The notes under the pieces were generated by a model. That model had not been told where the DNA came from. It did not search any database and worked only from the letters and a program-made list of their open reading frames with translations. A stretch of DNA of 63,175 bases, the filler included, from Sphacelaria rigidula (lineage: Eukaryota), in the NCBI GenBank assembly GCA_964200075.2. It is 11 parts of 11 records of this genome, joined end to end, with 100 filler letters (N's around TTAATTAATTAA, not from the genome) between each part and the next. Parts side by side here need not be neighbours in the genome. Positions count along the whole stretch, not along the records: positions 11,507 to 17,159 come from CAXNAA020025538.1; 10 more parts are not named here. One strand, given 5' to 3'. The stretch's first letter is position 1. Every line of letters starts with the position of its first letter. Position numbers and translations under genes: made by a program. Of this stretch, positions 1-46,152 are shown piece after piece.

Positions 1-2080
1 CTCCCGGGAGAACTTCCTGATGCACGCCCACGCTGCTCTGCTCCGATTGTTGATTCCTTGCTTGAGTTCGCCCTCTTCGTTGACGAGCCCGCCCAAGTAG
101 TGGAAACTACTTTTCTGGGCGTATTTCTGGCCCAATGCTTCGATGATCAGCGGTAAGGGAAATGGTGTTGGTGACTCCCCCTTCTTTGGTGCTTGCCTCG
201 GCATTCGCATCAAGAGAGTGTCCGTCTTCTTCTCCGATAAGGTCAGTCCAAGGCCCCAAACACGGCCACTATGATAGTCATCATCCCCGCCAGTCCGTCG
301 GGGGATCTCGAGAGGACGCCGACATCGTCGGCATACAGCATCCCCTACACCGCTCTCCGTACACGTTCCAGCGGTGTCTCCGCCCCCCTCCCCGTCTGCT
401 CATCGAGATATACCATATCCTTGATGATGATATCATCCTCGCTGAGTCGCACGAGGACTATCTCGAGCACTGCCACGAAGAAGACATAGGGGAGACAGCG
501 CACATCCTTGTCGCGGTCCGTGCGTGACTTCAAACCACTCCGAGAGCTCCCCGTCGTTCATGCGTACGCGGGCCTGCATACCGTCGTGGAATTGGCGGAT
601 AACTGCTATCATCTCGTCCGGGATACCAGCTCGGGCCAGTACCTGCCACAGAAGCTCTCGATCGACCGAGTCATATGCCTTCTGGACGTCGACGAAGCAC
701 ACGTACAGCGGTATTTTCCGCCGCCGTCCCAGCTCCTGGAGTCGGCGCCCTCCGAACAGCATGTCGACAGCGGATCGGTCAGGTCGGAAGCCGCACTGTA
801 CCTTCGGTAATACCCCGTGCGTTTCGCAGTAGTCGCTGAGGCGGTCGGCCACTATCTTCAGGAGCACTTTCCCTGCGTGCGATACCAGAGAGATCCCCCT
901 GTAGTTATTGCAGTTGGACCGGTCCGATTTCTTGTACAGCGCCTTGATGGTTGCATCTTTCCACTCCTGCGGGACCTCCCCTCCGTTCCAAACTTCGACA
1001 AGAATGGTATGGAAGCGTTCGAGGACGATGGGCTCGGCGCGGCCGTCGATCTTGAGTAGCTCCACAGGGAGGGAGTCGTGACCTGGCGCTTTCCAGTTGT
1101 GCATCCCCCGGACTGCTCGTCTGGTTTCCTCCAGTGTTGGTGCTACCCCGAGCGATACTGAATCCCCGGTGGTTGACGCTACCGGTCGCTGCTTCACCTC
1201 CTCGATGATGGCTGGGTTCAGCGTGGGCGATTTGGCGTTGAGCAGGGTGCGGAAGAATCTCGCCCACCGTTTAAGGATGGCAATCTTGTTCGTAGGACGC
1301 CGTTCTGGTCCTTTATGCACTTCTGCCCGCCGGATTGCCTTCCACCAAGACCCACCGATCTCTTGAGGTGTTTGTACAGGCCTCTCATGTCGCGATCCTT
1401 GTAGATAACTTCTCGCCTTACCACATACCCCTCCAGATGTGCATAGATGCCATCATCGATTGCTGTACGCACCTTCTTAAACGCGGCTCTGACTGCTTTC
1501 CACGATGCTGGGGTGCGGTGATGCTTCATCAGTTGGCGTGCCTCCCGTCGTTTGGCGAGCGCTGCTTTCACTGTTGCTCTCGTGCCGGGGTTTTCACACC
1601 ATTCCGGCATACGTGGTATCCGTGCCTCTTCCGGGAGTACTGTCTGCGCTGCTTCGAGGATAGCCTCGGTAAACTCCTTCGCGGCCGCCGGTGCAGTGGT
1701 GATTGGCTGGCATTTTTGCTCTGCGAGGTTATGTAGGAACCTCTCGGTCACGTGCCACCTTGCCATTTCGGTCTGCAGCTGCTGTCGACTGAATTGCCGC
1801 TGCTTCGACTTGGTGTGTACTTGGCGGTTGTGGGCAAGGCGGCCACCGAGGTCGACAGTGGCCACCACCATGTTGTGATCCGAGTCCGCTTCAGTCGGGG
1901 ATGCGGGTTGGGGGTGTACGACTACGTTGCGCACTCTACCTCGGTGCGCCTGCCGGGTAAGGATGTAGTCTATGCGCTTGAAGTCGCTCGTGCGACTCTC
2001 CACAACACCGTGGTATGTGTGCGAGATTCCGCCTTTGCGCGTGCTAGAGAAAGTGTTCGTGATGGCTAGCTTGTTCTCGG
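1..2080 (-). mobile_element. Decayed non-LTR retrotransposon (RTE-like LINE): endonuclease C-terminus plus reverse transcriptase; 5'-truncated, 3' end outside the window
   Basis: ORF 1218-2003 has the APE C-terminal motifs RIDYIL and SDHNMV. ORF 433-1320 has [47 protein letters not shown] and QGCALSP. The catalytic YADD is at 324-335, just after an in-frame stop at 345-347. The ORFs are joined by frameshifts. Confidence 0.95.
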
Positions 2081-2368
2081 TTTGACATGCGGATTCTGCT
2101 ATTTTTGGCCACTACGTTGTACTGTTGTCGGCCCTTGGTCCCAGACGTTCATGCAGGGGCAATGTATTCTAGATTGTAGTATGCAGCTGTTGTGAAAAAA
2201 TGCACATCATTTTCCCAAATTATGGAGGAGTTTAACGGCTTTTCCTCTTCCCCCTCGGTGGGTTTCGACTCTTCACTGCAGGTCTTGATCGACTCGTTGC
2301 CGGTCGCAATTGAAACAATTCGTACATTTTGAGGTATCGGGCTTCCGAAGAATACGCAAGCCACAGAC

Positions 2369-4760: not shown

Positions 4761-5653
4761 TGTACAAGTAGAGGCTACGCGGAATGCAAAAGGGAGGCCC
4801 GTGGATGCGACCAAAACTTGGGACCCTTATTACCGCCAAAATATGTAATACCTACCCCCCATAGGTGTTACCGGTAATTATGGGTGCAAAGGTAATCGAC
4901 ATCCTAATTTTTTTCATCATTCCCTTGCATTTTATATAGGTCCAACCTCCACTCCCCCATTTTTTTTGGGATCACCATCCCATAGTGAAACCTCGTTGGT
5001 TACACTAACACATCGTGCTCGGGAGAAATTCGGGAATACTTGTACCCTACTATATATGTGGCCATGTTCACAAGGCTTCAGTAACCTGAATTTGGCAATG
5101 CTGTGGGACGAGGGAAGGACCTAGAGGCATGCCTTTTGCGTATCCCTCTGTCAAAGCGGTACAAGCAGCGGTGAGGTTGTATGTCATCGACGGTAACGAA
5201 CAAGCTGTGTATAGGCAGCTGATCCCCGTCGCGGAGAACTGCCCAGAACATGTGAGGGAGTATGCAGCGGCAGCTGCTGCTGCATTCGAAGAGGCGTACT
5301 GTACTGTATCTGCGGCGCAACGCCCATGCCTTTCGAAGAGAAATTGCCACTTTCGTTCATCTTTCGAGAAATCAGGCCACAGAAATAGTAGATTTGGTGG
5401 TCTGAACCAGCGATGATTCGTCAGACACTTGAAAACTTTGAACACTTCGACACCAGATAAGCAACAACACAGAGGCCTACCCGTCATCTGGAAATCAGGA
5501 TCCGCCCCCCTCTTTTCTTCAAAACTTCACGTGGGCTGAAGTGAAGTAAAGCCCAAATATGTGCATCGCCAGGAGTTGGGATTAAAAAAAAAGGGGGGGG
5601 GGGGGGGGGGGGGAAGGGGTGTCATGTAATAAAAGGGGGGGGGGGGGGGTTTC

Positions 5654-9041: not shown

Positions 9042-9289
9042 GACACTTTCTACGATAGCCCCCCCCAAAAACCACCTAAAAGTGTCACGAAAAAATGGCC
9101 ATACAGCGCCTTATGTAAGGGTTCAGGCTGTGCATGAAGCGGCTCATATTGGCGACATCGGCTAGAACGAACCCAAGCGTCGGAATTCCCAGCTTGTCGT
9201 TGTGCTCGGCTTTTCCCATTTCGATTCATGTGAAGACTTTGCCTCCCAAAACCATGCACATTTGGGGGGGGGCTATCGTAGAAAGTGTC
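9042..9289. mobile_element. MITE, 248 bp, ~27-bp TIR (GACACTTTCTACGATAGCCCCCCCCAAA), 4-bp TSD CGCT
   Basis: Inverted termini at 9042-9069 and 9261-9289; CGCT at 9038-9041 and 9290-9293; second copy at 51554-51671. Confidence 0.88.
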
Positions 9290-11247: not shown

Positions 11248-11406
11248 GGGCGGGGGGTGGGGGCGGCGGGGGCACTCAATATCGTGCATGCCATAGTCAT
11301 CAGAACATTGACCTCGCATCCCTACGAAGCTGGGACGGAGCACGCCGGGTTTTCGCCGGACCAGGCTCGCACTCCGTCATCAAGCATGAAGCGCCGTGGT
11401 GTGCTC
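11248..11406 (-). mobile_element. Poly(C)-ended SINE-like element (3' part), cut off by the contig end
   Basis: G-tract followed by cactcaatatcgtgcatgcc...attgacctcgcatccc...gggacggagcacgccgggttttc; matches 16490-16785 and 32196-32495. Confidence 0.8.
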
Positions 11407-13675: not shown

Positions 13676-14271
13676 GGCATTGACAGGTGCTCCACCTGCA
13701 ATACCCACATCTCTGTCTCGCAGGATACAAAACCAGTCCCGAAGGGCTCCAGAAAACAGCTGCCCTTCCTCTGCTTAGCGTGTGACGGCGAGATCGGGGT
13801 CAGCACCCCGTATACCACCGCATGTCCGATCCTACCGGCGGTAAAGACAGGATATACGTCCACGCGGACGGCCGCGCGTGCGTGAAAACCCTCGTGAAAG
13901 CGGCCGAGGAGTGCACTCATCCGTGTTACGAGTGTACAGCAACCCTGTCCCAAAAAACACTCTATGATCTCTTGGCGGGGGATGGCAAACCAGCTTTCAT
14001 AAGGTGCGACCTCTGTTTCTACGACACGCGTGCCACGCTCCTATCTGATTTCCAACGGCACTTGTTGAAGGAGAAAGCGTCATATGCGTCAAGAAACGAC
14101 GATTCGACACCGCGCAAAGCACCGCGGGTCAGTGATAACTCCATGTTCCCTCCCGGAAACCAACCCGTCACGCCACCAACTAATATCTCCCCTCCCCTCA
14201 AAAAGAAGAGTAACAGTACGACCCGACAAGGTAGCCGACCCACGGCCACTAGGAGCGGAGCTGGAAGCTAA
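13676..14271 (+). pseudogene. Frameshifted Cys/His-rich putative Zn-binding ORF of unknown origin
   Basis: One frame gives CSTC...CLAC; ORF 13822-14271 gives YVHADGRAC, CYEC and CDLC. No family recognised. Confidence 0.3.
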
Positions 14272-14802
14272 ACCGCCGCTGACGGTAAGTACCACAAGTG
14301 GTAATTCCTTGTCCCTGTTCAACTCCCTCTCAACTATGTGTACTCTTATTTTCATCCTGCCCTCTCACACCTTCAATGATTGCTCTCGTCGGTTCCAGAC
14401 TTTTCTTTATTTATTTCTTGCAACATGCTTCAGTGCAATCTTCAGCCTGCACGCTTGTTCGCGTCTCTTCGTTCCTTTACCTTCCCCTTGTCTACCTTCT
14501 TGATACCGTGCTGCGTTCCAAAACCAGATGTCTACACTCGTGACGTGACGAACTTCGTCAGATCCGACATCATCCACGTCAGCTTCCGTCAGTCTCTGTG
14601 ACTTTTTAGCGGCGTCGTTTCTCCTCGTTTTGGGCTCCGGTTCTTTCGGCGTTGTGTATTCTTACAGTAACGTCGTCAAACCAACTTATTTTTCCCAGTA
14701 CTTTTCGGGGGTCAGGATTGGGGGGCATTGGGTGTGTCCTCAGTTTTATATTGCCTTCGTTCTAAACCGCTCCCGACACATCACGGAAATATCTGCCTCT
14801 AG

Positions 14803-16196: not shown

Positions 16197-16785
16197 GGGC
16201 GGGGGGGGGCGTACTGATTTGTTGAATGCGTTGATCGTTTAACCGTTCACCACGCATCTCTTTCGAGACGTACCAGAGTCTCTCGACCATTAACCTCGCG
16301 TCCCTGCTACGCCGCGACGGAGCACGCCGGGTTTTCGCCGAACCAGACTCGCAATCACCAAGCAGAGAGCGCCATGACGTGTTTGGCGAGTCTCATGAAG
16401 GGTGAGCTGCATCCTGCCAATATTGTTCGGCATGAAGCGTACTAATTATCCTGCACATGGATGACAACAGAAGAGGGTGTAAAGGGGGGTGTACTCATGA
16501 TATTGCATGCCGTAGCCGTAAGACCATTGACCTTGCATGTCCCCAATGCCGGGATGGAGCACGCCGGGTTTTTGCCGGACTAACTCGCAGTCACCAAGCG
16601 CGAAGCATCATGACGTGTTCGGCGCATCGCATGAGGGGTGACCTGCATTCTGCTCAGATTGTTCGGCCCGAAACCCACTAACTATCCTGCATATGGATGA
16701 TAGCCTCGAATGAAGTGCTTCTTTTTCTGGTATCGCCACTTCCAGGGACAGCCACGGGTTACACAGCCTTATGGGCGTCTCACCA
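16197..16785 (-). mobile_element. Cluster of three same-orientation poly(C)-family insertions: LINE-type tail ~16197-16275, partial SINE ~16285-16470, near full-length SINE 16484-16785
   Basis: The first and third begin with a G-tract plus gtact(c/g)a; the two SINE copies are homologous to each other and to 32196-32495. Confidence 0.8.
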
Positions 16786-17003
16786 AATGGAGTGGGGGAG
16801 GCTACAAGTAACACACAAGCATTATTGGGCTAGTCGGAGAAGAACTCCCGAAACGTCGTACTTACATCACCCGCGGTGGTGCTTGGTTGTCCGACTCTCC
16901 CGTGTCCGTTGGGAACGACAATAACGAAGAGACGATGAAAATTACGGTCGTCCTCGTTTGGGATCATCAAGCATGCGCGGCCGCATAGATCCCCCCCCCC
17001 CCC

Positions 17004-17120
17004 TACATCTAATATTAGGAGTAAGAACGGTGCTCCGTCTCGTAAGGGATGCGTGGTCAATGGTCAAACGACTAAGGCAAGCAACAAATGAGTACACCCC
17101 CCCCCCCCCCCCCCCCCCCC
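17004..17120 (+). mobile_element. 5'-truncated LINE 3' end with poly(C), flanked by poly(C) on both sides
   Basis: C13 at 16991-17003, then ...gggatgcgtggtcaatggtcaaacgactaaggcaagcaacaaaTGAgtaca, then C24 at 17097-17120; nearly identical to 52280-52363. Confidence 0.85.
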
Positions 17121-17659
17121 ACCCAACACCCCCCCACCGCCCCCCCCGCACCCCCTCTCNNNNNNNNNNNNNNNNNNNNNNNNNNNNNNNNNNNNNNNNN
17201 NNNTTAATTAATTAANNNNNNNNNNNNNNNNNNNNNNNNNNNNNNNNNNNNNNNNNNNNTCCTTCCAGTAGCACTTGAACGCTGCCCGACCAGCGCCTTT
17301 CTAGACGGAGCACCGCGACCCAGGGAGAGGGGGGGGGGGGGGCAGAGCGGGTGCAAAAGAGGGAATACAGGTTGAACATATTTGAAATGCTCAAGTATGC
17401 TTGCAGGGCTACCAGGCATCAACATCAATGCGGAGTCAAGAGCAGTACTTGTGAACACTTGAAAATGAAACATTTCAACGCACTTCCACGAAAAATTCTG
17501 CCAAAGCTAGTTTGCATAAATATGCACAAGCGCCGCGAGTTGTCTCTCTACCGTATCCTGTTAATAGTCATGTTCAAAGACATGAGACGCTTCAACAAAA
17601 ACACCAGGTACACCACACAGAAAAAAAAAAAACATGCACGAGAAGTCCGTCTTCCTCAC

Positions 17660-18330: not shown

Positions 18331-18852
18331 CTGAAACACCAAACACAACACACGGCAAAATACGAGAGAACACACACGTCACCATTCCGAAAGCAACGCA
18401 GAACGTACAAACGACAGGAGGGAAGGGGGCAACGTCAGCATACAACATACTAGTCCTCCATATCCTCGACAGTACACGGCCAATAGTTGCAACAGACAAG
18501 AAATGTACCTCATCAAGTATAGCCCTACTGCAACGACTACAGTTGCAGTAGACTTAAATATATCTAGTACATTGTTGTCTGCAGCAACCTTTCATCGTAC
18601 TTTGTCCAGGGTGTTTGACCCTCATATCGACACGACACCCAGCGGCTATCTGTCGAAACGGCAGCATCCTTACTCCGTGGAGCAATCGCCACACACGCAC
18701 AGTCGTGTGCATAATTCAACCCTCGACCGCGGATTACCTCGTCTTCTCCCGCTACATCTTTAGTATATACTCGAATATTCGCAAAGCAAAACGCCTCAAA
18801 TCCATGGGCAGCCAACGAATGAGTTGGGAGAGATGGGGGGACGCGGGGGGGG

Positions 18853-18997
18853 TGTACTCATGATCATGCATGCCATAGTCATAAGACCATTGACCTCGCA
18901 TCCCTGCAATGCCGGGACGGAGTACGCCGGGTTTTCATTTGTTGCTTGCCTTAGTCGTTCGACCGATGACCACGCATCCCTTTCGAATCGGAGCACC
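18853..18997 (-). mobile_element. Chimeric poly(C)-family retroposon (LINE tail fused to SINE 3' part) with a 20-bp TSD, intronic
   Basis: TSD gagttggg(a/t)gagatgggggg at 18821-18840 and 18998-19017; G8 tail at 18845-18852; junction at 18935-18936. Confidence 0.85.
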
Positions 18998-19401
18998 GAG
19001 TTGGGTGAGATGGGGGGGAAGGTGAACTGAACGACTCCTCGAGATTTCTAGACCTGCCAAGTCTACATGAGGACTACCATCCAGCATCATCAGCCTGGCA
19101 CTGCCCCCACGAGCAGCCGTCACAACAGACTGCACGAGCGCCAGTGCATATACCCTAGGGTGGCGATTCCTTTTCTATTGTGGACAAAAACACAGCCCAA
19201 ATGCACTACAGAGAATAACAACACAAAGTGACCCGTGTGAAAACCCCACCCCGCGCAGCGAGTTCCCGTCAAAAATACGGATTTTGGAGCTATAACTCTT
19301 TAGTGAGCTCAATCTATGAGCTCCTGCGTTTCAACACCAACTGATACCACCAATGAAAGCAGACGCCCCAGAGAATCACAAAAAAATAAAATAAAACTCG
19401 C

Positions 19402-20399: not shown

Positions 20400-20623
20400 C
20401 GCAAACAAGGTTACATGTATACTGCTACTGGTCGTAGCTTTCATACACGAAGAACGCATGACGCGTGATATATGCGTGGCAATGATCTTCTTGGATGTAG
20501 TGTTCTCTCTTTACCTACAATGACGACTACCCCCTCCGCCCCCCCCCCCCCCCCCGCCCAAAGCCTCGCTGTTAAGCCTACAACTTGGGGGTACGCGCGG
20601 CAAAATGGTTCAAAATACTTTAC

Positions 20624-22700: not shown

Positions 22701-23501
22701 CTGTCACATGGCCGCATTTTAAGGGTCATCATTGTTGTTGGTCTAGTGTTACGTTGATCTAGAGCCCATTTTTGAGAGAGATAGATGAGGAGGTGCGGAT
22801 GTGCTTGTACCTCGATGCCCGGTGGGGGGGGGGGGGGGGGGGGGAGGGCCAGTTTTCATTTGAGACTTCCGACAAAAAAAAAGAAGAGGTGGGAAGGGCG
22901 TCGGGGAGGGANNNNNNNNNNNNNNNNNNNNNNNNNNNNNNNNNNNNNNNNNNNNTTAATTAATTAANNNNNNNNNNNNNNNNNNNNNNNNNNNNNNNNN
23001 NNNNNNNNNNNCGACTACCATCATGGTTACCGGGAAAAACAACGCAAGCGCGCAAAAAAACCCCGGTAACCTGATTGCCTAGCTTACGCAGTGAGTGGCG
23101 TGTTTCACAGCGTCATCGCCAACCGACGGCAACGGGGGGGGGGAGGGGGGGGGCTCAGACATGAAACATACCAGCATCTCCCGAAGACTGGCGACGAAAG
23201 ATCTGTATCATTAGAGGTATAATATCTCAAACTCGAGGGTTCCCGCTACATTTGATAGTAATTCACAGTCAAGTACATACTGGGAACATCGAGGTTGAGA
23301 CACCTCGAATAAAAGGGGCGTTTTTGTTGTTGAGGAAATGTGTGAGGGATCTCCAGCTCGTCCGTTGCTTGCTTCGTCTATTTTTGTATGGGTTTCGAAG
23401 GGGCTACATTTCCGGTTACGATGTTTTCCGTACACGTGCTGCTGTGCTGTACCGTACGATACGTGCTCCTGCTAAGTGTTGTGCACGTACGCGGACACAC
23501 A

Positions 23502-25027: not shown

Positions 25028-26423
25028 GTACGCGAGGGGGCCCATATCGGGAAATCCATGAGCCACCCCCTCTTTCGCCGCACCAACCTCATTCTGGGGT
25101 TGGAAGAGGGGGGGCGGGTACCCAGTTTAATGAGGGGGGGTACCTCCCTGATCGCTGGATGATGGCGATAGTAGTTGCTGTACTGCACCGCACGTGTTTG
25201 CCGGTAACGCCGGCCTGCGCCGGGTGTACCGAAACGGTAGGTGGTACTGTAGGGGTAAGTCGAAGCAAGTAGAGAAAAACATGTCCGCAGAAGCAGGGAG
25301 TGAAGGTCAAAGCGCTGAGGGTACCGGCGCTGGAATTGTGCCGTAGATTCCAGAAGTCTTGCAAGGGGTGAACGTGAAGAGAGCACGCACGCCTGGCACC
25401 CGGGAGTTTGCATGGATCTGCCGTTGCGGGGATAACAATATCACGTTAATGACAATTCATGACTGCCGCTATCTCGATGTTGGATATTCTTTTTCGCAAC
25501 GCTACGGCCATACCATTCCCCTTCGCAACCTCTCCCTCTCTTGTGTCGCAGTGCAGTATCAATTGCGACATGTAAATATAGGCGTTGTACGAACACGGCT
25601 GTCTGCCCAAACGCGGGCCAAGTACGTGATTCTCTGCAATTCACTCATTGTGCACGTCTATAATATCAGAACATTTTCGTACGGGCTGGTAACACCACAC
25701 AGTCAACTTACGAGTACTGCATGTACGTTTCAGTTATTCAGTAGAGCTTTTTTCTTACACCATGCCCAACAGTGGAAAGCGACTATGTCGTGGGTACACA
25801 AAATTCGAGGGGAAGGGACTGCTAAAGCTCTCGCGATAAAAAAGGAAGGCATGCACCGCAGAAGGACGGGGGGGTACCAAACACAAATGAAAGAGAAAAA
25901 ACTCCTATGTTGACCGTCCTCCTGTGTGACCCCGGCTGGTGCGCCCACATATACCGAAAGGTGTTGACCGGCGCCCAGAATAGATGAGGTGACAACACAC
26001 ACAACACAACACAGTGGCAGTACAGAACTGTTCGTCGTACACCGCCCTCGTTAACATGGCGGCCGTATCACTGCAATAGTCCCAGGTCGGTAATAGCAAC
26101 CGGTCTTGCAAAAGCCAGCGGGACTCGGCATTCATTATCCAGTGATCACCGCGACACAAAAATCATTTTCCAGCCGGCAAAATTGCTCCCCGATCGCCAC
26201 AAGAACAACTGACACACCGAAACTCCTCGGCTTTGGGCTGCTCACGTTGGGGCAAACCTGGAGATATCTAAATGATCGTTCAATTCCGTATACTAGTGGA
26301 GGAATAGGAAGAACAGGGTTTTCCCGAAATTGATTTGGCATTTTCCTCATTCTCGACCGCGGGTAGGGGGGGGGGGGGAGGGGGTGGCTCATGGATTTCC
26401 CGATATGGGGCCCCTCGCCGTAC
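25028..26423. mobile_element. Putative 1.4-kb non-autonomous DNA transposon (~45-bp inverted termini) containing a SINE
   Basis: gtacg.cgagggg.cccatatcgggaaatccatgagccaccccct at 25028-25071 is mirrored at 26379-26423; TSD not clear. Confidence 0.5.
25749..26012 (+). mobile_element. SINE family 1, 5'-truncated
   Basis: Homologous to the body and tail of 48781-49142. Confidence 0.8.
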
Positions 26424-31432: not shown

Positions 31433-32133
31433 TAGCTCTCCGGTATACTGTACTCTACTGCACTCTTCGCTGCTGTATGACGATCAAGCCCCATGTTAAG
31501 GTATTGCTGCCCTGGCTTCGACTTTGCAGTGGCGTTTGCAGGTGACATCGTTATCTACAGGTAGGCATATCTGTAATTACTCTCCTGTGCGATACGGTGC
31601 GTGGGGGTGCTGTACTGTGCTTCACCACTGTACTGTGCTGTTGTAGTACTCACAGTGAGCATTCGGGTACCTGTGGTATCAACTTTTCAAGACTCATTTG
31701 AGTGTGCGTGGTTGATTTTGATCACGTACGTCACCCTCTACATACACACTAACGACCAGCCAGCAGAGCACGCCTTTGGTCGTTGATGACGGTGGAATCC
31801 GAAAGGGCTCATGAACTGACGATGCGCAATTCCCAATTTCCATCCGTCAGGCCCAAGCCCAATCGTGTTCGAATTATGTACTTCCATGTTCAAAATTCTA
31901 GCGGATTGGAAAAAAGATGAACCTTGGAAGGAACGCACTGCAGCACCTCCCTCGCAGCATAGTTGACGCTCCCCTTACTTCTACTCATCAATCAGTGCGA
32001 ACAATGTATTCGAGGTACATACGTATGTTCGTTACCTCAGGCGGCACGGCTTGTTCATCGGAGGGGACGGGTGGGGGGGGGGGGGGGGGGCGACTCCTGA
32101 CTCAGGATGGCGTCGGGCGAAGATGNNNNNNNN

Positions 32134-32495
32134 GTGGGGGGGGGCGGGGGGGGGGGGGGGGGGGGGGGGGGGGGTGGGGGGGGGGGGGGGGGGGGCACTC
32201 ATCATCATGCATGCCGTCGTCGTAAGACCATTGACCTCGCATTCCTACAATGCCGGGACGGAGCACGCCGGGTTTCGTCGGACCAGGCTCACAATCAATC
32301 ACCAAGGGCGAAGCGCCGTGATGTGCTCGGCGAGTCGCATGAAGGGTGAGCTGCATCCTGCGAAGATTGTTTGACCAGAAGCATACTGTCTAGCTTGAAT
32401 ATGGATGACAGCCTCGAATGAGTTGCTTTATGCTCTGGATTCGCCACTTCCAGAGACAGCCACGGGTTACACACTACCTCATGGGTGTCTCACCA
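32134..32495 (-). mobile_element. Poly(C)-ended SINE-like element, near full length (~300 bp) plus a long poly(C) tract
   Basis: G-tract 32134-32195, then a body collinear with 16490-16785; both copies end at gtctcacca. Confidence 0.85.
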
Positions 32496-33033
32496 TTGAA
32501 AAATAGTGGGGGTGGCGATGACTTCGGGATAGTGGTTTCCTGCGTTCGGACAATACCAACCAAGGACACGCCAATGCCACGCATATGCCGCATGCCATGA
32601 TCCTCCGCTCATAAGCCACGGCCAATACAGCACATCGGCCCTCACAGAACGGCAAAAGCAGTAGTAGTTATCGCGTCGGCATAACACGGTAGCTACGCAT
32701 GTACCGTATGCATGGAATAAAATAAAGGAGGAAATAATCAACTTCTCTCCTGGATCAACCATGACAATAAAAGGCCGCTCCGTGCCTCCTGGCCAAGCTT
32801 CCTAGGTTCGTGCAGCTCGTCGTAAAAACCGCATGTACAGGTCATATTCCAAATACCCACGGGACTGTCATACCCCACAAAACTCGCGGGGCTGCCAGCG
32901 GACGAAACAAAACTCGGTGACATACGTGCGAGGCGTTCGAATTTTCACAATGGCGAGCCCGAGAAAATTAATCGACGTGCTACTAATCATGGGAACAACA
33001 CTCTCACGCTTGCCGCACTATCGGCAAGAGTCG

Positions 33034-34242: not shown

Positions 34243-37200
34243 GGTGTCGTTGGCGTTTCACTTCTGTACAAAAAAAAGTGAGCGTCTAGTCTAGAGAAGG
34301 GTATACTTCCTCACTTTTGCCTTGAACCGGTACATATTTCAATTCTTGTGTACATTTCACGGTTAGGACTAATCATCACGACTCAAAATCACCAAATTCA
34401 CGATTTCTTCGGCCTNNNNNNNNNNNNNNNNNNNNNNNNNNNNNNNNNNNNNNNNNNNNTTAATTAATTAANNNNNNNNNNNNNNNNNNNNNNNNNNNNN
34501 NNNNNNNNNNNNNNNCAACCCCTCGAACTCTAAATTCATAGCCCCCTCCCAAAGGTCAGCATGTGCAGAGGCGCGGGCTTCGGCAATCGTTGTGGGCTCT
34601 GGCTCTTTGGCATGTTCGGCAGGTATCTCGTTCGGCTTCTTCTTCAATGCTCTCTGCTCAGCAATCAGCGCACGCAAGGTTTGGTCCCCGGTGATGGGCC
34701 CAAGCGAAGTTAGCAAACCGATCCCTTCTTGCTGGTTCAGCGCCCGCGTTTGTGCTCGCGTCCTGCCCTCCCTGCATTCTTCATCGTCATGTGGACCCAC
34801 GTTGTACGCCTCGAGCTGTATCAGCGCGTTGCGTGTTTGCACTGGCACATCATTTCCGTCAGGAATGGCGTCGCTACTGTTGCTGGAGGACGATGCAGGT
34901 GTTGATGATGTGCTGCTGCGAGATGATGGTGACGTAGACGCTGATCGGTCGTCGAGAGATGGCGAGGGCGATGTCGATGACGAATCGCCGCTGGATGCTG
35001 ATGCTGATGCTAATGGAGCGTCCAGCGGTAGTGGATATTCCGCCGCCTCCGCTGGTTATTGACTGTCCTCCACCCCCTGGGCCGGTAGCCGCACGTGGGG
35101 AATCCCTCTTCCTGTCAGCGGCCACACTTCTGCCAACTCATTTTTGCAGGGTTCATCCCCCCCTCCCGATTCCGCTGCCGTCAGTGTTTGCGGGGGCGGG
35201 AGAGACTGCGGCGATGCTTCCGACGTGATGTCTCGGGTCTCGACAACTTGCCCTCCCCGCGTTAGCACACGGTAAGAGTCGCGCGGATACTCGCGCGAAG
35301 GCCCGAGATAGAAGCAACTCTGCCCCTTAGGAAGCAGCTTGGATGGCCGCTTCCATCGGCAGTAGGCTGACCTGAGAAAGGGATGTGGACTGGCCGGCAT
35401 AGCCGTCCCGAACCACATTTCGTTCGGTGATTTGTTGTCCGGGTTGGAGGTCGAAGCAGTGTAGTTGAGCTGTTCACATGCCGAATGCATTGCCTCGGCC
35501 CACAGCATTTCGGTCTTCGGCAGCTGAACATGACCGAACAATGTCTTCGCCTGAATCCTTGCCACCATTCCCGTCGCTTCAATGATTCCGAAAGCGCGCT
35601 CTGCAACGCCGTTGAACTGGGGACTATTGGCGGGGGTAAATTCCTGCTTAATCAACAGATTATCACATACTGTTCTGAAATTATCCCCGAAAAACTCTCC
35701 TCCGTTGTCAGATCTTACTATCTGTACTATTGAAGGAAATCCGTCCGCTCGCACATCTGCGAGGAAACGGTTGAAAGCCTGATCAGAATCAGCCTTACGT
35801 TTCAAGAAATACAGCCAGGATTCTCTGCTGGAATCGTCCTTGATGATCATTGGGTAGTGTTTTCCCCCGTACAGATGCAATTTCTTTTCTGCCTCCTAGG
35901 TCTACGAAAACGCTACCGAGCTTGGTTTGAGCTCTATTTTTAGTCTGATGAGGTATACCTTTTCTGTATCCCTTTACCATCGAGCACGCAGTACATGCAT
36001 GCATTTCCCCTTCAAGTGTAGTATCTAAATGTCTAGCAGTATGCCTCAGCAGCTGCTCATGAGCATAACCATAGATACAGGGAAACAGGTTAATATCCAT
36101 CATTTTTACAGGGGAGGGCTCGAGGGCATCATTGCTGGTAATGCGGAAGCATCAAATTGCTCCCCAACTCGATATGCTGTGGCCACCAACATACCGTCCT
36201 GGTTCGCAAACGTTACACGTCCGTTGAATGCAGGCATTATACCATCTGGACCTTCCAACCGGTCCCAACTTTCCCCATCAAATTCCGCACGGGGTGACAA
36301 CAGGTTGTGTCCTAGATTAGGAGCATAAAGTACGTTTTTCAACTCTGCTACATGCTCGTTCTCCTCTGTCATAAACACTACTGTCACATTACCCTTCAGC
36401 GAAACGTCACACGTCACGCCGCCTATGCCACCAACACTAGAAGATACTTGTGTAAGATCTCTCATGTATCGCAATGAATCTGTCAGATGATAGGGAGCAT
36501 CAGTAACACCGTACCACTCTTCACAGAAGGGCCTAGAAACAGCAGCAGCCAACGATTTCAAGCGTGAAAGCTCACCACTGTCTTTCTTCGACTCTGCTTC
36601 GCCTTCCTGATCCGGAGCCCTAATTACGCGAGCTTTGCAGTCCCGTATCCTGTGTGGAAGACCACACCGAAAGCACTCCAGTGGCTTCTTGCCTACGTTT
36701 TCAGCTTTCGCGGAACTACTCCTATCAGTATCAGGTTTTGGCTTCCTAGCTTTACCCTTATTTCCACCCCCCCTGGCTTTCGCAACTAGATCTTGCCCTG
36801 TCGATTTGGCAATTTTGCCCTGAACAGAGAAGCTTAGGTGGGCATTTCGCACGTGGCGTTCTATCGCTTCTCGATCACGCATTACAACGCGGAAAATGAA
36901 TGCTCATAACACTTCTGACCATTTCGTATTCACTCGTTAGTCCACGCAACATGAGGGAACAAACAGTTCTCTCGTCCTTCTCTACCCCTAGCATAAGTAG
37001 AACGCTCAAAACTTCCGCGAGCTGTGAAAAAAATACGTGCGGATCTTCCCCTTGTTGCATCTTCAACCCGTTGAGCTTGTGCTCATAGGGGTTGATATCT
37101 GCGTCGGTAAGGGGCAAAAAGTGATCATTTATTACACGCCACGCTTTACTGGGGGATTTCGCGTTGCTGATCATTGCTCTTACACTTTTGCATGTTATAC

Positions 37201-37554
37201 AATCGTCCAGATGCCACCAAGCAGCCTGTGCTCGCTTGATTTGGCTTACCGTAAAGCCTTGCTCAACCAAGGGTGCTAAACCTATTCCAATACCAGCAAC
37301 TGAAATATCGTCGGTAGTGATGTACGCTTCATGCAATCCACATTGCCTGGCATATATAGAAAGACGCTCTTTCCATTATGGGAATTCAGTCGCAGTCCCA
37401 TCGAATTTCAAACCAGCAGGTAATCGAATACCTCTAATTCCGAAAGACGACACGCCACCTGTGCTTGCATTATCACCACCACCGAAACCCGATCCAAACA
37501 CCTCTACATTTTTCCACCATTCGGCAGTACCTACCGCTGGCGGGCGTGAAAAGT

Positions 37555-37660
37555 CCAAGCCTGGAATACCTGCTGACCTCTCCGGAAGACCCAGGCCTGG
37601 AATACCTGCTGCTGATCTCCCCGGAAGACCCAGGCCTTGAATACCTGCTGATCTCCCTTG
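37555..37660. repeat. Coding tandem repeat in copia gag (3 x ~36-39 bp, AGIPGLGLPGRS)
   Basis: cc(a/t)ggaatacctgctg..ctcc repeated three times. Confidence 0.8.
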
Positions 37661-38056
37661 AAGAGCTGGGGCTGCGGTTTGCAACGCCGCTGCTGCTCTT
37701 CTGTCGGTGACACTTTCATGTCGTCCGACGTACTCCGTACTGGATGCTCCCGGCGCGCCATCTCCGACAGAGGACTCCCCGCGGCCTGCATCCAGGCCGC
37801 TGTTCCCCCCTGGACCCACCAGGCTGCGTTCAAGTAGGCTCCCCAGCTTTTGTATCTCCGTCTTCAGGTCTTGGTTGTGACGGACAATTTCGTCGTTCTC
37901 TCTACGAACGTGAGCCAGGCCTCGTTCTTGTGTAGCGGGAGAGCTACTCCCATCTGCTTCGCTCCCGGGCAGAGACATCTTTTCTACAGTCGATCAATCT
38001 GTAGCATCAGCTGGTAGCGCTAGCCTGTCCAGAGATCGCTGCCTGCCCCGGTAGCT

Positions 38057-38247
38057 TGTTCACAATGAATGAAGAAGAAATAATTTATTGTCGGGAAACA
38101 AAAGAGAGTGACCCTCGAGGGGATCAACAGCTCCCACCTACAATGCCGAGAACCACACATCAAGCCAATCTCCCGCGGGTCATATAAATGTCCCGCGGGA
38201 TCAGTCTACAGTATCTCCCGCGGGCCATATAAATGTCCCGTGTTACA
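38057..38247 (-). repeat. Putative 5' LTR (191 bp, TGTAAC...GAACA) with an internal 46-bp duplication
   Basis: TG...CA ends; cgggacatttatatg.cccgcgggagat occurs twice; AATAAA near the 3' end; lies just upstream of gag; no second LTR in the contig to confirm. Confidence 0.65.
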
Positions 38248-39708
38248 TTCTCACTCTTGTTCTGGATAACATTCCTTTCTACGGAGACTTCCAAATAAAA
38301 TATCTTACACTACCCCGAAAGATATCTGCGGATGCAGAATTGACCAATATACGAACATGATACACTGCTGCAGTGGTGGGGTGTGCTTTGTTTTATTTTA
38401 TGTTGGCGAAAACTTGCGCATCTTCTCTCATGGTAGGGATCAGGAACGGAACTGCGTGGTACGGTTGCCAATCGAGTTGTGTGCACGCTCATGGACAGTG
38501 CAGGCAGTATGAAGCCGCACGTTGCTGAAATCCTTTTCACGTTGCATTTGAAGCAGAGAGAACTGACAGTTCTTGGGTGTCTGCACTGCACGCTGCTCGC
38601 TTCTCCTTTACATCCTCCTGCACGAATCACGTACACACGCACCCAAGACACCCTGCTTGCATGCAGTGCATGCAGTACAGACTGTCTGTACTATACACGA
38701 GTGACCATATACCGTTTCACAAATTTCACTGATGTAGTACAGCCGAAGAGGAGTTTGTGGTGTTGCCAAATAATGTCGCCTAGCTAGCTAGCTACCTAGC
38801 CGTATATTCCGCCCGGGCGCGGTAGTCGTCAGTGCACGTACATGTAATTGTTCTTGTGTTCGGGGGAAACCTTCCGCGGTACTCCATCTCAATCACGCGA
38901 GCTCGCTCTCTTCAAGTGAATATTGATGCCGATTCAGCAGGTGACCTGCCCTCGCGGTCGAAGGATGAATACCGATATCCTTCTTTCAATTTTTTCTCAT
39001 TAATGTTCTTAAAGATGCTTTTGTGGACTGTTGAGTTCGCACAACGGGGACCCACATGACCTAGATATGACGGTCTCGGACGCTTCATGTCAAAACTAAC
39101 GAGTGAGGGATCTCAGATGTTCCAACTTGGGTTTGTGGTGACGAAATGCCCCGCCATGAACACGCTGCTTTGGTTCGGTTGCTTGTTTAGAGTTTTTCAC
39201 GATCTTGAGGAGGCGTTTGTGGTTCGGGATCGATACCCCGCGAAAAAGAGCCAGGGTGGGCGACTTTCGTTGGCCAGAACACGCGCCGCAGGTATCAGAT
39301 GACACTCACACGTGAACTGTAATGTACCGCTGCGCCTCCTCCGTGCACTTCAAAAGAAAGCGCGGGCTAAGATGCCTTGCAGCAAGAGATCATGAGGCAA
39401 AAGTGGGGGAAAATGCGAAAGATACATGTATATATCATTTGTCGAAATAAGTGTGGATATTTTGCTGTTGAGACTACTTGTTGTTCCTAGCATATGCTGT
39501 GGTTCATACCACTCTCCCCTTCTCAAGGTAATATGACACATTTTCCTGGTGTATGGCTCGGCAACTTGCAGCGTTCCCCCGCCGCACACAGCATGGCTTT
39601 CCAGCTCACGTTTGCTGCTGTGTTACTGACTATTGCTCTGCTCTAGTCGCTAAATTGTCCGCTTTAATGCCCAGTCTGCACAAAGTCGGGCGCCAGATTT
39701 TATACCGA

Positions 39709-39925
39709 TGTAATGCGTGAGAGGACCGCGTGCTTAGAGGACCGCATCGGAATTTGAACATCCCTATGGTTAGGGTTAAGGTTAGGGTTAGTGTCAGTGT
39801 TGGGGTAAGGGTCAGGTGCGTGGTACCTGCAGGGACTGGCCCGACTGGTTTCGCAAAACGTCGATCCTGGGGTGTTTCGGACTACCGCTCGGTCCTCTAA
39901 GCACGCGGTCCTCTCACGCATTACA
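39709..39925. mobile_element. Ginger-like MITE (TGT...ACA, ~35-bp TIR, 4-bp TSD CCGA) with internal (TTAGGG)-like repeats
   Basis: CCGA at 39705-39708 and 39926-39929; TIR tgtaatgcgtgagaggaccgcgtgcttagaggaccg; inverted second copy at 40102-40167, cut off by the gap. Confidence 0.85.
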
Positions 39926-40267
39926 CCGAACCGGCATGCAGGTTGAAAAAACAAACTGAGCCAGCACGGATCTGTTGTATTCTCGTTCATTGACGGTAGC
40001 AGCTGTGTGCCTCGCGGCGGTGCAATGTGTGGGCCATGTTAGGGACAGACTTTGGCATAGACTATCTAGGCAATGCTCAGTAATACAGCGCAGGTAGCAT
40101 GTGTAATGCGCGAGAGGACCGCGTGCTTAGAGGACCGCGCCGTAGTTCAAAACACCTCAGGATCGACNNNNNNNNNNNNNNNNNNNNNNNNNNNNNNNNN
40201 NNNNNNNNNNNTTAATTAATTAANNNNNNNNNNNNNNNNNNNNNNNNNNNNNNNNNNNNNNNNNNNN

Positions 40268-43200
40268 CTGCTCTCTATTGCTTTGCCACAGGGGCAATTC
40301 TGTCGATCTACTTCCTCCTTTCGACGACCGATGGTGGAAGGGAGGAAGAAGACGACGAGCACGAAGAGTCGTCCTCTGTCAGCAACGGCGACAAATGAGG
40401 GGGCGCCCCAGGTATTTTCAACCTGGCAAACCTGCTAGAGAAGGAGTTGGCAGCCATCGAGCGCCACCTCGGAGACCAACTGTGGGCGACTGGAGAAATC
40501 TGGCACCGGAACCGCGCTCGGAGGTCGTGGTCACTCGAGGTACTGTTGGACACCGGGGCAGATGGGGGCAATTACATGTCTGGGTTTCTGTGGCGTTGCC
40601 TCATAAAAGCAGAAACAGTACAGGCCAAGCTAGACACGAACAACGCTGGCGCTCTTCACGCCGCCGATCCCTCGCAGAGCAAGGTACCTCCGATTTCTAT
40701 AGTTGGATCAGTCGTGATACACCTCTCGTTCGCTCAAGATGATCGCGTTCGTAAAGTGGCAGTCGTGGTGGTAGAGGGCCTACCTTACTGGCTCATTTTG
40801 GGGGCCGAGGGTTTTAGGGCAAATCGCAGCAGTATGAAATTCAAAGCAACAGGAGGGTTTCGCCCTACCCCGTCCGCACCGCGGATTCAGGTTTTGACCA
40901 ATGATAGCCCCCGATATACCGCCGAGTATATACTGTTCGCCCTGGACCCGCTCACGAAAGCCCGTTCGTTAGTCACGCCTTCCCCCGCGCCCTGTGAGTT
41001 CCCCACTTACGGTGACGTTGCTTAGGAAGACGACGGCACGAGGGAGTGGAACAGAGCCTGGCCGAGCGTTCCGTCTCCATCGATGGGTTTGTGAGTATGG
41101 CGGGGGAAACGGTGACTATGGGACCCCAATCACAGGACAGGCAGCTTGTTCTGATTCTGCCCTTGGCTAAATACGATCTGGACGGTGAAGCGTTGGTAGG
41201 GATAGCCAAACGAGTATTGTGATAGGACCAGGATTTCCGGTTTACTGAAAGTTGATAAACCGAGGTAAAGATATGGCCGAAGTGGAAACCTCCGGGACAA
41301 TCGCGCGCATGATACCCCTCAACGTGCGCAATCCCGCTCGCTTTCACTCACTTTTCGACGACACGGCGTCCAAAGTAGACCAACCTACCTTGCCCACACC
41401 CCCTTCGTGCCCAGAAAGTGACCAACTACCCTCAGGACCCCACGAGGTCCGAGTATCGGACGTAAACATGGGACAACTTGGGGAAGCAGAGAAAGTGGAA
41501 CTTGTGCGCCTCATAATGGATTTCGTGGAAGCAGGGTGCCAGCCTGCATCAATCGTACGCTAGAATTGTCATTGATTGACGAGGCTAGCACACCCTTTGC
41601 CGCGAAACAACGCCGTTTCTCGTCGGAAGAACGCCGAATAATGCGACCCTCGACCTTCCCCTGGGCCGTGCAATGTCTTCTTGTCAAAAACAAAGATTGT
41701 ACCTTGCGCTTGTGCATCGACTGGCGTGCTCTGAACAAGTTTTTAGCGCCTGATAGCGGTGGACTGAGTGACATGCAGTCAATATTTGATGGTCTCAGAT
41801 GCAAGAAATATTTCACGCAACTAGACCTAGCCTCAGGATTCCACCAAATTGAGATTGCTGAGAAAGACCGCCACAGAACGGCATTCAGAGATGCAGACGG
41901 CCTATTCTTCGAGTTCACCAGGGCGGGTCTCGGACTGACAATACTCCCGGCGGCGTTCACTCGTGGAGTGAAATCAACGATAGGCAACCTGAGTGGCGTA
42001 CATAGCTAGACATCCTCATAGCCAGCCCCTCGTGGGACGAGCACTTGGCTCTACTTACCATTATCTTGCAACGTATGTCGACTGCAGGATTCTCGGTGAC
42101 CTTCGCCAAGTGCAGCTTTGCAGCACCGTCCCAGGCGTTCCTTGGCATGTTGATCGATAGTACAGGCATACAACTGACCCCGTTCAGACTCACCTCAGTG
42201 GCTAAGATGCCACGTCCACGCACTGTTGAGGAACTACGACGTTTCTCGGACTCACCGGGTACCTCAGACAGTTAGTCGAGAAGTACAGCATAATAGCCGC
42301 CCGTTGACCAACATTCTTCGCCACAAAGAATTTGCCTTACGTCGTGCACGAGAGTTGACCATTCCGTGGGGTGATGACCAGGAAGCAGCGTCCCGGACAC
42401 TCGAGTCTTCTCTCGCACCACCAACGATACTCGCTCTCCCCGACTTTAACAGCACGTTCGAATTGCAGACGAATGCTAGCACAGTGGGTGCGGGAGTCAC
42501 TCTCTTACAGCCAGTGAGGAACGAGTCTCGTTTCATCGCATTTGCGAGTCATAGGTTTTCACGTACAGACTCGCGCCGAGTACACACGGAGAGGGAACGT
42601 ATAGCCGTAATATGGGGGGTCCAGCACTTCAGACCGTACCTAGCGGGAAGGGAGTTTAGATTAGTCAACGACTGTTCCGCGCTGACATAGTTGTTTCGTA
42701 GTCGTGATCTGTATCCCAAGCTACACAGGTGGGCGCTCCGACTCATGGAGTACGACATGGAACTTCGATGGCGTCAGTGAACCCGACACGTGTTACCTGA
42801 CGCTATGTCCCGTCTCCCGCATCAACAGGAACCAGGAGACGATGTAGACGACTCATTTCCCGACGATTTCACCTTTGGCACACCCTCGGAAGCCGCAAGG
42901 TCCCACGGATCACAACTGGACGAGGAATGGTTGTCGGAATTCTCAGCCAATGGTTTCAAGAGAGAGCACATAGATGTAGCTCAGACGAGATATCCAGGCA
43001 CCTCGCGAACACTCTCTTTCACTGAATGCGCGTCAATAATAGACAAACCACCCCGTAGTTCCCCCAGAATTCGCCGGCCATCCGTGCATTCGCAGTTCCC
43101 TGGCTCTGCTCGCATACGTACCGTGCCCACAGATGCTCAGATGAATCTTTAGCCGCCGGTAGCTTTCACGCCTATTGATATTCCAACGATGGAACCTACC

Positions 43201-45771
43201 CCCATCACTCCTGCCCCAATCAGCAAGCGGCTGGAAGTGGAAGAAGTTATCACTGCCGGGGGGGATAGTCCTTTGACTCCAGCGAAAACCGCGGTGGATA
43301 CGTCGGCAGTCCAGAACGCGACACAGGTGTTGACGACCGCACCCGCACTGAAACGTCAACAGGAGGAGCACGCCTTCTTGGGGCAGGTTAGATCGATACT
43401 GGGGGGAGGGAAGGCGCACAGTACGAGTGATAAAGATGGCGAGAGTACGGTAGGTGCCGACGAGGTGCAGGAGGGAGAAGAGGCGCCCGATAGGAGTGAT
43501 TCAAACTGCGAGAGTGTGGTGAGTGCCGACGAGGTGCAATGTGAGGAGGAGGTGCCCAGTACGAAAAATAACGTGAAGAGTAGGGTGAGTGACGACGTTG
43601 CACACAAAAACAGTCTGGACGATCAAGCTGTGGCGGGATTTACGAAAGACATTCAGAAACCGTTGCTAGCCATCCCATCTGCTATGGTACCCGACGTCTT
43701 GGCGTTGATACACACCTTACACGGCCATGCTGGAGTAGGCGCCACGCTGTCTTTGATGCGCGAGCGTTTTTTCTGGCCGTCGATGATCAAGGATACCAGG
43801 CAACACGTGTTACCCTTGCAGCTGTAGGAGGAGAAAGAGGGCTGGTAGCCGCAGGGTTGCAATGACTCCGGGGCGAGCAGTAGACCCATGGGAAGTGTCG
43901 GGGGTGGAGTTGCTGAGCGCAGATCCTGTGCATCACTAACGAAGAATAAATCCATCCTCTTGATCGTAGATCGAGCCTCCAAGTTCCCTTTCGGCTTCCC
44001 ACTCCAGACAAAGCAGGCTGAAAGTGTAGCCCGCATCCTTGCAGACTTATGCTTGACATTCGGCATGCCTCAGAAAATCCGCAGTGGCGGAGGAAATGAA
44101 TTTATAGCCGAGGTGGTGACGTCCCTGTGCAGGTGGTTGAAAGCAGACATTGCTTTCGGACCCTCCGATCCCCCCAGAGGACAAGAAACAGTCGAGAGGT
44201 TGGGGGGATGGCTACTAGACATGCTGGCGGAGCTGTGTAAGTTGTGGCCCCAGAGATGGGACGAGTATGTCTCCCCAGCACTCTGGATTCAGCGTATCTT
44301 GCCTGACGTTTCATTACATGCTCCCGTTCGAGCTCTTGTTCGGTCGTAAACCCCGCACGTCTGTAGATTCGCTTACTCCCCTATATCATAAGGTGGAATC
44401 GAGTAAAGGACTGGTTGCCTTCGTGGAGCAGCGCGGACAGAACCTCAAGGAGGTACGTCTAGCTCTTGAGAAAAGGCACGCCGCGAAGGAATCGACTTGT
44501 TCGAAAATGAACGCCTTTACCATGAGAGCTGCCGCCGGAGTGTCTGCTAGAGAGGAGATCTGGTCATGGTACGCGAATCAGACAGCACGATATATCGGGA
44601 CGGTAACGGTGGGCAACTGCAGCACGAAAGGTATACGAGGCCCTGGAGAGTGAAGGACGTACTGATGACAGGCCTTAGTGTTGAAGCAGTCATGCAAGGT
44701 TGTAAACGTCGTACACGTAGGCTAGCTGTCTCGGAGGTAAAACCCTTTCATGTTCGTCCACCACACCTTAGACCCTGAATAGCTGACGAGTTTGCTCAAC
44801 ACGTATGGGGTACAGATTGGAAGGCCAATACCACTCCTCACCACGCCTTATCAATATCACGAAGTCGTCACCTTCGTGGATCGCCGTGATATCTACTCCA
44901 CGGCAGGCACGAAGCAGTGGGAATACAAGGCGAGAACTCCAGGGGGGAAAGATGTCAGACTGGTTGCCTAAGAGACAGCTTCGAGGCAACTTTTCTTCTT
45001 TGGAACAAGACGCTTTCCACGCACTCTGGCACCTGCACCACCCCGCAGTTGAGCCCAATCCGCCCTAGCACTCGAAGAAGCGCCCCGCTCCTCTGTCGCG
45101 CAGTGATGCCTTGAAGCTTTTCCCCATAGGTGTTACCTTTGGGGAAGACTTCGGAGGTGTTACGGTCAAAGGCCAGGTGTAATACTACGGGAGCCGCTTT
45201 TGGCGAGTACAATACGAAGGCGAAGATTGGGAAGAGCTTTCCCGCCAGGAACTAGAACGCTTAACGAGGATACCGACCTGAGACAGCAGCGGGAACGTTA
45301 TGAAGAGTGGCCATTGTACGAGAAAGTACAGGATATCATTGAGCAGGAAAGGTGGTTGTAAAAGACAACAGCGAATACCTATATATTGGAGTGATGCTGC
45401 GATAGGGTCTGCACTTTTGGGGCCAAAACCTGCCTGATTCAGGGGTTCCTAAAAATAGGAACTGCACAAGAATATGGGTCAGGATATCCCCGTTTGCAAA
45501 TTTATTCGGGATATCCCTAGCAAATTGGGAGAAAAACCCTGGCGTACTCTCACCTGTTTAAAAAGTCGTCTTTTGGATAAGATAAAGGGTTCCTAACAAT
45601 TCTACTTTCAGGCCGTAAAAGTGCTGACCCTATCGCAGCATCACTCATTGCTGGTACCATACATTCAGTGATGAATTGCGAATATCCTGTTTTTGTGGCT
45701 TGCGAGTGTTCCTGTTTCTTCTTCTTTTTCTTTTGGGTGTTTTGGCATTGTCTGGTTCCTATTTTGTAACA
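40268..45771 (+). mobile_element. Decayed Ty3/gypsy LTR retrotransposon: protease, RT, RNase H, integrase, chromo-like and Tudor-like modules, putative 3' LTR 45315-45771
   Basis: LLDTGA (40447-41025); LRLCIDWRALN and LDLASGFHQI...TAF (41536-42009); LQTNAS..GAG and ERERIAVIWGVQHFRPYL (42226-42690); HGHAG...FFWPSM (43189-43827); IVDRASKF, GNEF and ETVER (43888-44349). PR-RT-RH-IN order; many stops and frameshifts. Confidence 0.95.
45389..45646. mobile_element. Sola-like MITE (GAG...CTC, ~30-bp TIR, 4-bp TSD ATTG) inserted in the putative gypsy 3' LTR
   Basis: ATTG at 45385-45388 and 45647-45650; TIR gagtgatgctgcgatagggtc(t/a)gcactttt. Confidence 0.85.
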
Positions 45772-46152
45772 TACAAGCACTCGTATTCCTCTCTTCTCAT
45801 TCTGCCAACTTGGTGATACGTTTTTTTTCCATTTTTAGTGACATACCACACGTCGGACGAGTCATTACTCGTCGAAACAAGTGCACTCGTGGATGATTTT
45901 TGAAAACACAACGAGCATGNNNNNNNNNNNNNNNNNNNNNNNNNNNNNNNNNNNNNNNNNNNNTTAATTAATTAANNNNNNNNNNNNNNNNNNNNNNNNN
46001 NNNNNNNNNNNNNNNNNNNGTGTAGCTGTAAGCACATGGCAGTGATGAGACGACGAAAAATACACACGGAATGAAATATTGGCCAAGTTGAAGCGAATGA
46101 TCAAAGTCACTCTCAATCCGCACCAAACTCTCAATCTCACGAAAACCTTGTT

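Follow-up and report, generated by a model that had tools for sequence, protein, structure and literature searches.

Poly(C)-ended copies of a LINE and its short partner in the C/G runs of Sphacelaria rigidula DNA

The LINE end at 17004-17096 and other copies in the window

The window, by which we mean the whole stretch of DNA analysed here (63,175 nt from Sphacelaria rigidula, assembly GCA_964200075.2), consists of 11 pieces of ~5.65 kb each, joined via N/linker spacers. On its plus strand, a C13 run (16991-17003) leads directly into a 93-nt, 5'-truncated LINE 3' end (17004-17096), which was recognised through alignment with five external LINE ends and which holds the last ORF codons (…ASNK, TGA) followed by GTACA. 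C24 and then interrupted C-rich sequence follow up to the end of the piece (17097-17159). This is the arrangement that an earlier note on this DNA had described, with C13 to the left of a 5'-truncated copy and C24 to its right. Judged from the sequence, the C13 run forms the 5' junction of the fragment and is a candidate copy of a target-site duplication (TSD), and the C-rich sequence on the other side comprises the tail and a possible TSD; the two are inseparable here because the piece ends 63 nt after the element. The fragment is 90% identical to 52275-52363. A single-copy-depth contig from a public sequencing run spans 16736-17041 with 0 differences, and in another public run the C13 run is 2 C's shorter; this latter run may be the source sample of the window assembly, in which case its support would not be fully independent. 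Of the public runs that contain DNA of the window, one is labelled an algae metagenome. The public-run contigs appear to be cut at 17088-17159, and among the joints listed from them there is none across 16991-17120 of the kind expected from an allelic empty site.

All eight 3' ends listed in the earlier note are present, at 11274(-), 16211(-), 16490(-), 17096(+), 18853(-), 32197(-), 51623(+) and 52360(+). They are spread over six pieces and not, as had been stated, over five. We defined the family through alignments of 40-310 nt and not through the 9-mer ATGAGTACA, which alone is not significant (17 matches with at most 1 mismatch vs 11.7 expected). The element end reads ATGAGTAC[A/G], with GAGTG in two copies, so the proposed consensus end in TACA applies to some copies and is not constant.

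Two kinds of sequence carry these ends. Type B is the 3' end of the LINE ORF (17004-17096, 51996-52360, 18935-18997 and the tail of the 16211 copy), and type A is a non-autonomous element of ~300-310 nt, without coding capacity, represented by 16490-16793, 32197-32507 and truncated copies. The tails of the two align over ~60 nt, that is, the last ~60 nt of the short element resemble the LINE end. The short element was not found to be a SINE in the strict sense, with a 5' head derived from a Pol III gene (tRNA, 5S, 7SL or snRNA): no tRNA came up in the search for such a head, and Rfam yielded nothing at the gathering score or with an E value of 1 or below.

The copy at 16490-16793 (-) is a full-length or near full-length short element of ~300 nt, with a C6 tail at 16484-16489 and C5 just 5' of it (16794-16798), and is 80% identical over ~310 nt to 32188-32495. 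Directly behind its C6 tail, in head-to-tail arrangement, lies a hybrid (16211-16470, -) in which a 5'-truncated short-element body is joined to a LINE-type tail, its own tail being G and then C9 (16201-16210). Contigs of other genomic copies carry, as loose ends, further G's at 16484 on the plus strand. The second long short-element copy (32197-32507, -; ~311 nt) likewise has C5 just 5' of it, and its tail of C20-A-C29-G-C9 (32136-32196) stands beside an 8-N scaffold gap. A further short element (11274-11406, -) is cut by the piece end and has an interrupted C-rich tail at 11248-11273 (C5-G-CC-G-C5-A-C6). At 18853-18934 (-), an 82-nt 5'-truncated short element with a C8 tail (18845-18852) is joined directly to a 63-nt LINE 3' fragment (18935-18997, -) that lacks the last 5 nt and the C-run. 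This composite is flanked by a TSD, with the 3' copy at 18821-18840 and the 5' copy at 18998-19018; 20 of 21 positions match, with 1 mismatch and one extra G, and in element orientation the TSD opens with C6-7. Between the 3' copy of the TSD and the C8 tail there are 4 nt, which simple pairing of tail and target does not predict.

On the plus strand, a 44-nt 5'-truncated tail of the short element (51580-51623) sits within a C-run, with C9 (51571-51579) on one side and C15 (51624-51638) on the other; the same short repeat that surrounds it occurs at 9042-9100 (+) as a paralogous 'empty site', with an uninterrupted C8 at 9059-9066. Also on the plus strand, 51996-52360 is a decayed LINE 3' end with a 119-codon frame (…ASNK), TGA at 52353-52355 and GTACG. 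It is followed by CCC, in agreement with the three C's noted earlier for this copy; a TSD was looked for here and none was found. Finally, a fragment of the LINE ORF from just before the CCHC motif lies at the edge of piece 8 (40270-40335, -; tblastn against residues 228-249 of the LINE protein fragment P0001 introduced below, 73% identity, E 1e-5). Summed word depths are very high over the repeats as compared to unique bins, these being depths and not copy numbers.

The remainder of the window is also rich in mobile elements. A Pfam scan of 86 window ORFs returned transposon domains only and no host genes, and no Rfam families or tRNAs were found in the window. Parts of copia-type (gag, integrase, RVT_2) and gypsy-type (RT, RNase H, integrase) elements lie at 34516-45919 and 50413-51033 and take up much of pieces 7, 8 and 9, and piece 3 is mostly repetitive by summed depth. 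A second LINE at 433-2111 (-), with APE and RT parts, frameshifts or stops and a 3' end that runs off piece 1, was considered as a member of the same family and set aside as different (34% identical in RT). A short repeat with C8-9 between short inverted arms occurs at 9042-9100, 9261-9289 (inverted) and 51555-51671, with two copies face to face in piece 2 at ~190 nt from each other; this repeat may form one end of a further mobile element whose termini are C-rich. Run X6 contigs skip 14001->14526 and 14283->14527 (+) with GT..AG ends, and therefore represent spliced RNA from a region (14001-14527) without a Pfam-recognisable ORF.

The LINE protein and copies outside the window

A word search with the 119-codon frame found P0001, a C-terminal LINE fragment with a C..C….H….C motif, to which the frame at 51996-52360 is 61% identical. 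Searching with P0001 led to the full-length proteins P0002 (1,360 aa) and P0004 (1,328 aa), both of which end in …KASNK; P0002 has Exo_endo_phos at 170-392 and RVT_1 at 740-989, and P0004 is alike. The full-length relatives have one endonuclease and reverse-transcriptase ORF of about 1,330-1,380 aa, the LINE ORF having its CCHC motif at the C-terminal side, and the proposal of a LINE family is borne out by the intact APE and RT ORF in these relatives.

When metagenome contigs were scanned for the pattern, three of the 25 matches proved to belong to the family (L006, L015 and L021), and we rejected the other 22 as chance. In all three the ORF runs to …ASNK and TGA and is followed by GTACG and then by C8, C10 or CCT-C7, and in two of them the frame is fully open across 440 nt. 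The same pattern in the genome_contigs scan gave two family members among 20 matches, both on contigs binned into bacterial MAGs, the other 18 being chance. C-runs were present at five of the five external LINE ends (L006, L015, L021, L036 and L037/L046, with C8, C10, CCT-C7, C9-T-C9 and C13). The most complete view is given by L046 (5,259 nt), where TGA, GTACG and C13 come after an uninterrupted frame of 1,382 codons that is 88% identical to P0002 (residues 1-1360); a single intact copy thus shows, without a break, the ORF, its stop 5 nt from the end and the C-run. As an observation apart, the brown-alga-like LINE contigs found inside two public bacterial MAGs (L046, which is contig C43 of G001, and several of G002) are bin contamination. 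The second of these MAGs, G002, also contains diverged SINE-like ends, of which three can be judged: one is C-rich, one is ambiguous, with C5 only after a duplicated 9-nt end, and one (L057) is without a C-run. Two further short-element tails of G002 fall at contig ends.

The stop (…ASNK, TGA) stands 5 nt before the C-run, as had been claimed for the LINE-type copies, and because of this there is essentially no 3' UTR. The end does not have the L1-type form of a poly(A) tail after a polyadenylation signal; instead, GTAC[A/G] makes up the 5 nt after the stop and (C)n follows, and polyadenylation cannot produce such a tail. Cellular addition of poly(C) is not known, and the parent copy must for this reason serve as the template of the (C)n tail. 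Within the ORF, the last 25 residues are the most conserved (0.82 vs 0.70 and 0.66), which, in the comparison of sequences, fits modestly with a double constraint on protein and RNA signal. In the tail shared by the LINE and the short element, a consensus hairpin of 11 pairs (5+3+3; -7.8 kcal/mol) can be drawn, with loops that differ between the two. We present this hairpin as a suggestion only, because only one of its 11 pairs shows a compensatory change and the folds of single tails are no more stable than those of shuffled sequences (z -0.3 to -0.8).

C-runs at the element ends and the case for targeting

At least five C's lie within 8 nt of the 3' end in seven of the eight window copies. 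The background for this event is 925 of 124,264 positions on the two strands (0.74%); the association, with a post-hoc binomial P of ~1e-14, is therefore far beyond chance. The (C)n end that had been proposed for the family was recovered at these seven window ends and at all five external LINE ends, and we confirm poly(C)-tailed 3' ends sitting in C/G runs as a real observation.

That the copies sit in C-runs, as was also suggested earlier, is supported by four kinds of evidence: a filled and empty pair of paralogues, the TSD that starts with C6-7, the C's found where truncated copies have their 5' junction, and the head-to-tail pair. In the pair of paralogues, the filled site C9-[44 nt]-C15 (51571-51638) stands against the empty C8 site (9042-9100) with recognisable homology on both sides, the two sites being paralogous and not allelic. 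The truncated 5' junctions are C13 for the 17004 copy and C9 for the 51580 copy. In the head-to-tail pair, the position of the 16211 copy behind the C6 tail of the 16490 copy is what would be predicted had the older tail been the target. Just one TSD that extends beyond its C-run could be defined.

C/G runs of at least 8 nt are in large excess in the window (30 vs ~1.4 expected), and at a length of at least 13 nt there are 13 C/G runs vs 2 A/T runs. Eight of the 30 touch a recognised element end and another 3 are part of these interrupted tails; the other 19 touch no recognised element end (5593-5649, 20539-20555, 22824-22844, 26366-26378, 32073-32090, 63104-63132 and others). Possible origins of these 19 are other (C)n-tailed families, extreme 5' truncations and expansion of the tracts. 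A search with a tail profile beside the other long C/G runs gave no further copies. At 17260-17342 (-), C14 is followed by a weak resemblance to the LINE tail (nhmmer E 3.2 at 17296-17316, not counted), which may be a third, diverged, 5'-truncated variant cut by the piece start.

The first question that these data raise is whether there is any target preference at all. If there were none, all of the C's would derive from the element, through the templated tail and through non-templated or slipped C's at the 5' junction, and the 'C-rich TSDs' would have been misread. Extra nucleotides at 5' junctions are known from other LINEs, and the C-runs that flank 17004-17096 and 51580-51623 are not by themselves splittable into TSD and tail. 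This reading seems unlikely to us: C8 is already in place in the 9042-9100 paralogue at the exact site of the 51580 copy, both copies of the 20/21-nt TSD of the 18853 composite open with the C-run (6-7 nt), and the curators of the Ectocarpus elements independently scored TSDs as C-rich in the supplementary entries (PMC12477816). The same TSD, which is regular, as is typical of staggered nicking, also bears on the possibility that insertion is endonuclease-independent, with cDNA patching breaks at fragile C/G homopolymers. Such capture would suit a window in which C/G runs of at least 8 nt are in such excess, most of them without an element, but the APE domain is intact in the full-length LINE copies and the tail is complete at seven of the eight window ends, and we hold break capture to be quite improbable.

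An origin of the homopolymer tracts in sequencing or assembly, from poly-G read ends or collapsed low-complexity sequence, also has to be weighed, as C/G runs lie at or close to the ends of several pieces, the 8-N gap (32126-32133) borders one tail and the run contigs appear cut at 17088-17159. We give this hardly any credence, since a single-copy-depth contig crosses the C13 junction without differences, five contigs from unrelated public assemblies show the same end with its C-run, and the curated Ectocarpus library, which was built from a different assembly, lists such an end as well (PMC12477816).

The best explanation, which we consider probable, is that these are 3' ends of an APE-type LINE and of a ~300-nt partner that shares ~60 nt with it, and that both are targeted to C-runs. 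By the published classification of its Ectocarpus relatives, the LINE most probably belongs to the RTE-X clade. In the mechanism that we propose, the LINE endonuclease would nick the G-rich strand of a C/G homopolymer, and the freed 3' end of the G-run would pair with the templated (C)n in which the element RNA terminates, with reverse transcription beginning there. That an RNA ending in C's could prime on a G-run that has been nicked, as the earlier note suggested, would be plausible. Slippage along the homopolymer could then give tails of variable length. The protein would recognise the specific ~60 nt before the tail, inside the coding region, and this recognition would explain why the short partner can borrow the LINE machinery. 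Furthermore, every insertion would leave a new C-run usable as a target, and seeding of this kind would account for copies in head-to-tail order and, in part, for the surplus of long C/G runs in the genome. The fullest form of this proposal, a homopolymer-specific system that combines nicking of G-runs, slippage priming by (C)n, targets that it builds itself, a signal in the last ~20 codons and a role as a main cause of the ~20-fold C/G-run excess, is one that we put forward tentatively, as a possibility that falls a little short of an even chance.

Relation to described LINEs and meaning of the (C)n end

The earlier note knew of no described poly(C)-tailed LINE. This does not hold, as RTEX-1/2 of Ectocarpus and their partners were already recorded with such ends in 2025 (PMC12477816, Supplementary Material 3). 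There, RTEX-1_Ec32 is entered as 'single EN-RT ORF; (C)n 3'' and RTEX-2_Ec32 with '(C)n termini/TSD', the TSD is given as 'C-rich' in all of the RTE-X entries, and the families have RTEX-4_NV / RTEX-1_BF as best blastp matches (PMC12477816). The entries for other Ectocarpus LINEs give different ends, (CAA)n for RTE and (CA)n for CRE (PMC12477816). Among the partners, RTEX-N1 is ~600 nt long (607/604), has >6,000 copies, 'can be present in tandem' and shares '60 bp 3' end 83%', the origin of the 5' region of RTEX-N1_Ec32 was not found by the curators, and RTEX-N2 is 188 nt long (PMC12477816). A prior description with the same specificity, which the earlier note had named as counting against its proposal, therefore exists in part, through these supplementary entries (PMC12477816).

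Set beside this published description, the family in the window matches RTEX-1/2_Ec32 in each feature: it shares the single EN-RT ORF, the (C)n 3' end and the C-rich TSD, and, as with RTEX-N1/N2_Ec32, there is a short partner that shares 60-100 nt of the 3' end and occurs in tandem copies (PMC12477816). The short element described here differs from the Ectocarpus partners (607/604 and 188 nt) in its length of ~300 nt (PMC12477816). The closest named proteins are from Ectocarpus sp. and end in the same …ASNK; P0001 has 48-64% protein identity to the Ectocarpus entries, so that the LINE described here represents another family or species. The trait is thus not new, being recorded for Ectocarpus RTE-X, in a supplementary table only; C tails are absent from the main-text discussion of PMC12477816 as far as its accessible sections go. 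A literature search of imperfect coverage, the bracketed form 'poly(C)' being unsearchable, returned no other poly(C)-tailed or G/C-run-targeting LINE beyond the Ectocarpus supplement and no mechanistic study of (C)n-tailed LINEs. The 'poly-C' of PMC5381506 refers to tracts inside L1 3' UTRs and not to LINE tails, and we set it aside. A Saccharina paper names an RTEX-1 element without a word on its tail.

The (C)n system had been viewed as a mirror image of L1. The likeness to L1 and Alu holds for the homopolymer tail, the TSD that starts with the tail nucleotide, the 5' truncation, the non-autonomous passenger and the presumed pairing of the tail with a nicked complementary tract. It fails for the origin of the tail and for recognition. 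L1 and Alu have nothing but poly(A) in common, which is relaxed recognition, unlike the passenger described here, which shares ~60 nt of specific 3' sequence, as in the stringent type (PMC3747384). The LINE also differs from L1 in that its tail is C and not A, its ORF is single and it is without a 3' UTR. The closer analogy is, in our view, to a LINE with a short-repeat tail whose repeat unit would here be 1 nt. In stringent LINEs the terminal repeat is thought to allow slippage and to set the register at initiation, and UnaL2, with (TGTAA)n, and the I element, with (TAA)n, resemble our elements as stringent pairs in which the tail of the SINE derives from the LINE 3' end (PMC3747384). The elements in the window differ from UnaL2 and the I element in having a single-nucleotide repeat unit, a putative recognition region in coding sequence and an apparent target in the matching homopolymer. 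Microsatellite-targeting LINEs of other clades, with di- to penta-nucleotide repeats as targets, were reportedly described by Kojima and Fujiwara in 2004, and they would have in common with the family studied here that the simple repeat used as target corresponds to the repeat at the end of the element itself.

What is new here are the independent copies, the pair of empty and filled sites, the TSD that starts with a C-run, the hybrid and the tandem copy, together with an intact public full-length copy (L046) that has the ORF stop 5 nt before the C-run. A (C)n-tailed family may account for the high frequency of long C/G runs in this genome and for the breaks of assemblies at them. If the proposed system is real, nested and tandem arrays would be expected, and the last ~20 codons would be under joint constraint as protein sequence and as RNA signal. 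Almost everything known about how homopolymer-tailed LINEs work derives from poly(A) elements, whose tail is added by the cell. A (C)n LINE must carry or regenerate its own tail, and seems to choose a matching homopolymer as its target; it would thereby offer a natural test of whether the pairing of tail and target, or endonuclease specificity alone, sites the start of target-primed reverse transcription.
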